519 nucleotides of DNA. Source: a phage. Position 1 is the first letter of the stretch, and each line of letters starts with the position of its first letter. The position numbers were made by a program, and so were the translations under genes. Positions 1 to 519 of this stretch are shown piece after piece. The notes beneath the pieces were generated by a model. That model was not told the origin of the DNA and made no database searches. It saw nothing but the letters and a program-made list of their open reading frames with translations. Location of the stretch: the sequence record L26375.1; one strand, given 5' to 3'.

Positions 1-85
1 GACAGTGAGTCACCACATTGAAAGATGATGCGGTCTAACGAAACCTGACCTAAGACGCTCTTTAACAATCTGGTAAATAGCTCTT

Positions 86-155
86 GAGTGCATGACTAGC
101 GGATAATTCAAGGATATCGTAAGGTGCCCTTTATGATATTCACTAATAACTGCAC
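86..155 (+). promoter_or_regulatory. Probable RNase III processing site (T7 R0.3 equivalent) in the leader; approximate boundaries
   Basis: By established T7 biology, the 0.3 mRNA 5' end is generated by RNase III cleavage about 35 nt upstream of the start codon, which maps here to about 130..136. In the sequence, a 9-position stem with a GUAA tetraloop spans 110..131, with pairs C118-G123, U117-G124, A116-U125, U115-G126, G113-C128, G112-C129, A111-U130, A110-U131 and one A114.C127 mismatch. A possible lower stem pairs GUGCA 88..92 with UGCAC 151..155. The lower-stem assignment and the boundaries are tentative. Confidence 0.5.
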
Positions 156-160
156 GAGGT
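156..160 (+). promoter_or_regulatory. Shine-Dalgarno ribosome-binding site for ocr
   Basis: GAGGT at 156..160 is complementary to the 16S rRNA 3' end. An 8-nt spacer (AACACAAG, 161..168) separates it from the ATG at 169..171, which is near-optimal geometry. Confidence 0.85.
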
Positions 161-168
161 AACACAAG

Positions 169-519
169 ATGGCTATGTTTAACATGACTTACAACAACGT
201 TTTCGACCACGCTTACGAAATGCTGAAAGAAAATATCCGTTATGATGACATCCGTGACACTGATGACCTGCACGATGCTATTCACATGACTGTCGATAAT
301 GCAGTTCCGCACTACTACGCTGACATCTTTAGCGTAATGGCAAGTGAGGGCATTGACCTTGAGTTCGAAGACTCTGGTCTGATGCCTAACACCAAGGACG
401 TAATCCGCATCCTGCAAGCGCGTATCTATGAGCAATTAACGATTGACCTCTGGGAAGACGCAGAAGACTTGCTCAATGAATACTTGGAGGAAGTCGAGGA
501 GTACGAGGAGGATGAAGAG
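169..519 (+). CDS. ocr: Ocr (gene 0.3 protein), DNA-mimic anti-restriction protein inhibiting type I restriction-modification; 117 sense codons, 3'-partial only in that the stop codon lies beyond the window
   Basis: The frame is open from ATG 169 to the last base of the window. My translation is [117 protein letters not shown]. This matches the T7 Ocr sequence as I recall it at all but four positions, including the acidic C-terminal tail [11 protein letters not shown]. It has a strong SD at the correct spacing and codon usage typical of well-expressed E. coli/T7 genes (CTG, CGT, GAC, AAC, ATC). Recalled T7 Ocr is 117 aa, so the stop should be the next codon after 519. Confidence 0.95.

Follow-up and report, generated by a model that had tools for sequence, protein, structure and literature searches.

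Directional G:C->A:T substitution in a leader and ocr gene of bacteriophage T7, probably left by laboratory mutagenesis

Gene 0.3 of bacteriophage T7 encodes Ocr, a DNA mimic that blocks type I restriction enzymes, and the window studied here (the whole stretch of 519 nucleotides that was analysed) carries an uncatalogued allele of it. The question raised by this locus is how a piece of DNA so close to T7 came to differ from it by base changes of a single kind, and what those changes may have done to the gene and its product. An initial annotation, made from the letters alone, had noted four amino-acid differences from T7 Ocr, had ascribed each of them to a G:C->A:T transition, and had proposed a mutagen or cytosine deamination as the cause, leaving natural drift in a close T7 relative open as an alternative.

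The stretch is T7 DNA. Megablast and a base-by-base comparison place it on the + strand of the T7 reference (NC_001604) at 757–1275, in an ungapped alignment with 98.1% identity (509 of 519 nucleotides the same). Positions 1–168 (+ strand) form the 5' leader of the T7 0.3 early mRNA, as judged from the ungapped match to NC_001604 757–924 and the annotation of that record, and the leader sequence includes a ribosome-binding site, GAGGT, at 156–160 (+ strand). Positions 169–519 (+ strand) hold codons 1–117 of gene 0.3 (ocr), identified by translation, by the Pfam family PF08684 ("DNA mimic ocr"), whose profile is covered in full (positions 1–101 of 101) with E = 7e-62 and 206.7 bits, the cut-off being 25, and by a match to the crystallised protein, PDB 1S7Z (E = 1.7e-70), from which only four residues differ. 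The translated product includes the segments HMTVDNAV and LMPNTKD and closes with EEDEE. Gene 0.3 spans 925–1278 in NC_001604, and its stop codon falls just past position 519 of the stretch. Position 1 lies 7 nt past the start of the E. coli promoter A3 (T7 750 in the NC_001604 annotation); the order of A3, leader with ribosome-binding site, and gene 0.3 is colinear with the start of the T7 early operon throughout the ungapped alignment.

The ends of the stretch are themselves of note: one stands 7 nt after the A3 start, and the other coincides with the final sense codon of ocr and leaves out the stop. Such ends suggest a trimmed, cloned, or amplified fragment rather than a random contig, and for that reason they leave room for a constructed origin, either as a mutagenised clone or as an altered copy of the reference.

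Exactly ten bases differ from NC_001604 757–1275, and all ten differences are G:C->A:T (six C>T, four G>A); transversions, A:T->G:C changes, and indels are all absent from the ungapped comparison. The substitution density is 1.9%, and with 6 of 116 C and 4 of 125 G altered, about 4% of the G:C pairs have been converted, on both strands. Five changes fall in the leader, four are missense, and one is silent. On the + strand, those in the leader are C>T at 18 (T7 774), where eight of eight natural relatives have C; G>A at 25 (T7 781), where all natural relatives have G; C>T at 107 (T7 863); G>A at 114 (T7 870); and C>T at 120 (T7 876), a naturally variable base. Those in the gene, likewise on the + strand, are C>T at 179, which turns codon 4 (178–180) from TCT to TTT (S4F); C>T at 234, which leaves codon 22 (232–234, AAC to AAT) as Asn; G>A at 289 in codon 41 (289–291, GCT to ACT; A41T); C>T at 293 in codon 42 (292–294, GCC to GTC; A42V); and G>A at 388 in codon 74 (388–390, GAC to AAC; D74N). 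The four amino-acid changes had been listed relative to T7 Ocr, and correctly so: Ser4, Ala41, Ala42, and Asp74 are the residues of both the T7 reference and PDB 1S7Z, the codons and coordinates are exact, and the nucleotide alignment shows that each change results from one G:C->A:T transition. D74N does remove one acidic residue, taking the Ocr total from 34 to 33. Typing every substitution extends the uniform spectrum from four of four to ten of ten, the six additional changes being the five in the leader and the silent one at Asn22.

To place this spectrum among natural variation, the same region was aligned from eight natural Teseptimavirus relatives (NC-A, phiA1122, JeanTinguely, 3A_8767, N30, IME390, EG1, and Yanou). 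Each differs from T7 here by 30–70 substitutions of mixed spectrum. Pooled over the eight, there are 107 G:C->A:T changes, 133 A:T->G:C changes, and 124 transversions; the G:C->A:T share is 29% in the pooled counts and 35% when each column state is counted once, and A:T->G:C changes (about 35%) and transversions (about 33%) make up the remaining spectrum. Under the natural spectrum, ten G:C->A:T changes out of ten would arise with P of about 5e-6 to 3e-5. The relatives agree with T7 at the ten sites, apart from Yanou, which has T at 120 and at 179, and EG1, which has A at 120. The states in the stretch are therefore derived, and the G:C->A:T direction is real rather than an artefact of the choice of reference.

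These data bear directly on the reading of the stretch as a wild, close T7 relative with a drifted ocr region. Natural mutation pressure leans towards G:C->A:T, and F4, T41, V42, and N74 each exist somewhere among natural Ocr homologues. Against this reading stands, besides the mixed spectrum of the relatives, the outcome of a megablast search of phage records, in which none of 184 matches is closer to the stretch than wild-type T7 itself, so that no record has a net mutation in common with it; moreover, the four rare residues are never found together in nature, and four of the five coding changes are missense, yet the relatives keep Ala41, Ala42, and Asp74, and all but Yanou keep Ser4. We regard natural divergence as exceedingly improbable, and the drift that had been left open is effectively excluded. 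The accompanying proposal, that a uniform G:C->A:T spectrum reflects a mutagen or cytosine deamination and not ordinary divergence, is strengthened by the ten-of-ten count, by the mixed spectrum of the relatives, and by the existence of laboratory T7 with the same signature and a comparable density of changes, described below.

Searches for the same sequence elsewhere returned nothing identical. The whole stretch had no match among plasmids and E. coli genomes, and the exact variant protein is absent from the protein collection. A k-mer spanning A41T/A42V had no exact match in viral, metagenome, or genome contigs; one spanning D74N had none in viral or metagenome contigs; and k-mers for the three neighbouring leader changes and for S4F had none in viral contigs.

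The changes within and outside the gene fit the pattern of mutations that escaped selection. There are 166 possible G:C->A:T changes in ocr, namely 97 missense, 65 silent, and 4 nonsense, and the observed ratio of four missense to one silent compares with an expectation of 58% missense (P = 0.31). The leader took five changes on 75 G:C sites and the coding sequence five on 166 (P = 0.17). Loss of an acidic residue accounts for one of the four missense changes, against 35% expected. The missense:silent ratio, the division between leader and coding sequence, and the acidic loss all fit an absence of selection. Because random G:C->A:T change in a very acidic gene is expected to remove acidic residues, D74N is unremarkable in this respect; the rarity of the four variant residues, and their never occurring together in 120 natural representatives, are likewise expected of unselected changes.

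A positive control was provided by the whole genome of T7 isolate P (AY264777), a heavily mutated laboratory line, aligned to the T7 reference. We take isolates P and P82 (AY264777, AY264778) to be the mutagen-plus-bottleneck line of Bull et al. 2003 (J Mol Evol 57:241) and, given also the spectrum computed here, presume that the mutagen was nitrosoguanidine. Of the 304 substitutions that separate isolate P from T7, 94% are G:C->A:T, and both strands were hit (159 C>T and 127 G>A). The density averages 3.9 per 519 nt, with a maximum of 10. In 84% of cases the mutated G has a purine on its 5' side, against 51% in the genome background, a bias that we presume to be the signature of nitrosoguanidine. 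Two lesser features of this genome are that C>T slightly outnumbers G>A on the + strand and that the density peaks in the leftmost 924 bp (1.4%, vs 0.5–0.9% elsewhere).

Isolates P and P82 share with the stretch a T7 backbone and near-pure G:C->A:T change on both strands. Within the same 519 nt they carry seven substitutions, of which six are G:C->A:T; missense changes in ocr are among the seven and were tolerated. T7 DNA full of G:C->A:T changes that are tolerated in the dispensable ocr region is, in other words, a known kind of object. None of the ten changes in the stretch is common to P or P82, however, and none of their seven occurs in the stretch, which represents an independent lineage; with so different a mutation set, AY264777 and the P/P82 lineage are ruled out as its origin. 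The stretch also differs from isolate P in degree. It is denser (10 substitutions vs 7 in this region, and 2.5 times the genome mean of P), its 5'-purine bias is weaker (70% vs 84%, with three 5'-T sites), and its changes are clustered, whereas those of isolate P are almost unclustered (6.9% vs 5.2% expected).

Sequence context was examined for indications of the agent. Read 5' of the mutated G, the ten sites have A, G, A, G, T, A, T, G, G, and T, so that a purine occurs at seven sites and T at three. The purine count fits both the background of the stretch (46% purine, P = 0.11) and isolate P (84%, P = 0.22), and the three 5'-T sites are improbable under isolate P (T = 4.9%, P = 0.011); a hand calculation from the isolate P frequencies puts the likelihood ratio of the isolate-P signature to a context-free process at about 0.2 for the ten sites. 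On the cytosine side the 5' neighbour is A at five sites, G at three, T at two, and C at none. For deaminase motifs, this small sample gives TC at 2 of 10 sites (background 31%), CC at 0 of 10, and WRC at 5 of 10, which does not differ significantly from its 28% background. CpG is not represented among the ten sites. Clustering is mild, with four of the nine gaps at 7 nt or less (permutation P = 0.012), and close pairs always lie on opposite strands (18C/25G; 107C/114G/120C; 289G/293C), which argues against a processive single-strand deaminase, from which same-strand runs would be expected. Along the + strand, neighbouring changes in the clusters 18/25, 107/114/120, and 289/293 accordingly alternate between C>T and G>A.

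Several agents were considered and rejected. UV as the sole cause is incompatible with the non-dipyrimidine sites 120 (GCA) and 234 (ACA), and the proportion of dipyrimidine sites, 8 of 10, compares with a background of 71%. Bisulfite-type conversion would have altered nearly all C of one strand rather than 6 of 116 C and 4 of 125 G. Hypermutation by an APOBEC/AID-type or toxin-type deaminase was rejected on the ten sites' want of TC, CC, or WRC preference and of same-strand runs. Hydroxylamine and EMS, both poor in context preference, and nitrosoguanidine are all possible, ten sites being too few to name the agent; deamination, enzymatic or not, is less likely.

We consider it probable that the stretch is T7 DNA (757–1275) that passed through a G:C->A:T-specific process, most likely deliberate mutagenesis in the laboratory. 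The target would have been T7 itself or a 0.3 fragment that had been cloned or amplified. Nitrosoguanidine or EMS, both alkylating agents, would have produced O6-alkylguanine, which mispairs with T, or alternatively hydroxylamine would have produced N4-hydroxycytosine, which pairs with A; either lesion would yield G:C->A:T changes, and the process would have converted some 4% of the G:C pairs in leader and coding sequence alike. Since T7 can do without Ocr on hosts that lack restriction against it, the changes would have gone unfiltered by selection, and the Ocr allele would be a by-product rather than an adaptation. Mutagenesis of T7 stocks with MNNG is routine laboratory practice (PMC3470554), and a passage of PMC8923235 refers to its use on T7, citing Springman 2010. 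Against this explanation stand the three 5'-T sites, a density 2.5 times the isolate P mean, the clustering, and the finding, taken up below, that D73C worsens the Ocr mutant Mut12.

Two other accounts of the spectrum carry some weight, neither of them great. The stretch may be a constructed sequence, either a random-mutagenesis clone of an ocr fragment (from a mutator strain, biased error-prone PCR, or a hydroxylamine-treated plasmid) or a designed or computer-altered T7 derivative. We think this unlikely. The end points noted above would suit a C-terminal fusion or a test set, no collection searched contains the sequence, the context shows no bias beyond "any G:C pair," and leader and gene took equal numbers of hits. 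On the other hand, the usual spectra of Taq/Mn error-prone PCR and of mutator strains are mixed and include A:T changes and transversions; the sequence contains no vector, tag, or linker; and the version with hydroxylamine on a plasmid overlaps the explanation preferred here. Cytosine deamination without a chemical mutagen, whether through heat or storage damage, passage through an ung host, an enzymatic deaminase (an expressed APOBEC/AID-type enzyme, a base-editor-style tool, or a bacterial deaminase), or damage errors in a low-coverage assembly, strikes us as less credible again than a constructed sequence. It would give the same G:C->A:T-only result on both strands, it accommodates the mild clustering, and the 5'-T sites that fit isolate P poorly pose no problem for it; heat, according to a statement quoted in PMC8923235, raises G:C->A:T transitions in phage T4, which also counts in its favour. 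Its weaknesses are the missing deaminase motif (TC, at 2 of 10, lying below its background and CC absent), the close pairs on opposite strands in place of same-strand runs, the absence of sites at CpG, and the extreme spontaneous or heat exposure needed to convert 4% of the G:C pairs in a sequence that is still coherent; in its bisulfite-type version, nearly every C of one strand should have been hit.

A special case of deamination is enzymatic editing of replicating T7 inside the cell, for instance by a bacterial DNA cytosine deaminase serving as an anti-phage hypermutator, by analogy with APOBEC3G acting on HIV. Were it so, the targets would include Ocr and its leader, which lie on the DNA that enters the cell first. 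The spectrum is right and the mild clustering would fit, but with no motif, no coordination between strands, and no environmental or host context, such editing must be judged very improbable.

Of the five leader changes, three fall in a predicted hairpin that extends over roughly 78–160 (+ strand), with its upper stem at 110–131. We take this hairpin to be the RNase III site R0.3, presumably cleaved at about 134/135, a position that reportedly originates with Dunn and Studier in 1983. According to older work, processing at R0.3 may promote translation of gene 0.3. The wild-type leader hairpin has a predicted stability of -26.8 kcal/mol and is distinct from shuffled sequences (z = -2.2). The best fold of the mutated leader is predicted to be 6 kcal/mol weaker (z = -0.8) and is no longer distinct from shuffles. 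This predicted loss is due to G114A, which disrupts the G114–C127 pair halfway along the upper stem of 9 bp. Two further changes lie close by: C107T turns the C107–G135 pair, adjoining the presumed cleavage site, into U–G, and C120T lies in the GCAA loop, which varies in nature. If processing aids 0.3 translation, the predicted weakening of the hairpin could affect processing and lower Ocr expression, and G114A in particular may have reduced the latter. An arrangement of A3, R0.3, and gene 0.3 in that order has been confirmed only in T3, a related phage (PMC3276506).

The protein encoded by the mutated gene keeps 113 of the 117 residues of T7 Ocr, and the two loci have in common the leader, the ribosome-binding site, the length, the acidic C-terminal tail, and Phe54, a residue of the dimer interface. 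What sets the variant apart from T7 gene 0.3 is the four missense changes, the silent change at Asn22, the five leader changes, and one acidic residue fewer. It contains 33 D+E and 6 K+R; the T7 Ocr monomer has 34 acidic and 6 basic residues (PMC3439906). An AlphaFold model of the variant (mean pLDDT 84.4), used for secondary-structure placement only since such models cannot judge the effects of point mutations, has helices at 8–25, 31–58, and 78–116. In this model S4F is N-terminal, where no helix is predicted, A41T and A42V lie in the second helix, and D74N falls in the loop preceding the long C-terminal helix.

Natural tolerance of the four changes was surveyed in 120 cluster representatives of natural Ocr homologues. 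Position 4 (Phe here) is Ser in 85 and Phe in 4; position 41 (Thr here) is Ala in 98, Val in 13, Ser in 4, Ile in 4, and Thr in 1; position 42 (Val here) is Ala in 91, Cys in 27, Ile in 1, and Val in 1; and position 74 (Asn here) is Asp in 90, Glu in 28, Asn in 1, and Gly in 1, and thus acidic in 118 of 120. Each of F4, T41, V42, and N74 is found singly, though rarely, and none of the 120 representatives combines them. Residues 41 and 42 had been described as part of a conserved stretch, a description that holds insofar as both are mostly Ala (98 and 91 of 120) and needs qualifying insofar as Val, Ser, Ile, or Thr occurs naturally at the first and Cys, Ile, or Val at the second. The representative P0039, named for the Ocr of Escherichia phage vB_EcoP_SYGE1, has the sole Asn at the Asp74 position. 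Cedecea phage Yanou naturally has T at both 120 and 179, giving Phe at Ocr residue 4 (ATG TTC); with Phe4 in Yanou and in 4 of the 120 homologue clusters, S4F is a naturally tolerated state. Among the matches listed by a large protein search, the best has 95% identity to 88% of the query. T7 Ocr, which matches at 97% along its full length, is missing from the listed representatives and presumably lies within another cluster.

Asp74 is Asp73 in the numbering of the mature protein. Roberts et al. (2012) describe Asp73 as the one central acidic residue near the target-recognition domains of EcoKI, and found that adding D73C to the five-change mutant Mut12 abolishes its remaining inhibition of modification (PMC3439906). 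Their charge mutants carry 5–17 substitutions each and all folded, and antirestriction in vivo survives in several of the sets with five or six charge changes (PMC3439906). The engineered mutants that include D73C have lost the same acidic side chain as D74N; they differ from the variant in being designed sets of Asp/Glu to Asn/Gln/Cys replacements, whereas the variant combines a single charge change with S4F, A41T, and A42V. Because the published multi-charge mutants stay active, we infer that the variant probably still functions, including in the inhibition of EcoKI, EcoB, and BREX. By analogy with those mutants it is probably folded, dimeric, and still active against type I restriction as a DNA mimic, with at most a modest loss of affinity; activity may be slightly reduced by the loss of the EcoKI-facing charge.

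Asp73/Asp74 is not mentioned in the studies of the BrxX–Ocr complex (PMC11317158), the RNAP–Ocr complex (PMC7064336), or in Kanwar 2016 (PMC4872106), and Ala41/Ala42 is not mentioned in the two papers on complexes (PMC11317158 and PMC7064336). The Ocr allele that escapes the defence system PARIS is F54V (Rousset et al. 2022; PMC9122126). F54V is, like the variant, a missense T7 Ocr allele of laboratory origin, as we suppose the variant to be; it was, however, selected, and it arose by a T>G transversion, outside a mutagen-type spectrum. It is absent from the variant, in which Phe54 is unchanged, and nothing ties the four residues changed here to evasion of a defence system.

What is new here is a previously uncatalogued Ocr allele, the gene, the T7 backbone, and the kind of process being already well known, and for biology at large the case has little weight. 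The allele could serve as a multi-substitution Ocr variant in studies of robustness, with D74N at an EcoKI-facing acid and A41T/A42V at a mostly Ala-Ala helix position, and G114A offers a handle on the effect of the upstream hairpin on 0.3 expression. More generally, the case illustrates that laboratory-mutagenised phage DNA can be told from natural variants by a purely directional spectrum, once this is compared with natural relatives and with a mutagenised control; such a comparison is relevant to the curation of phage databases.

One further element of the leader deserves mention. An Rfam scan of the stretch at E <= 1 assigned no family. A boxA-like motif, GCTCTTTAACAA, which we take to match the boxA antitermination consensus of rRNA operons, is present as a single copy at 57–68; it is invariant in eight of eight natural relatives and was spared by all ten mutations.
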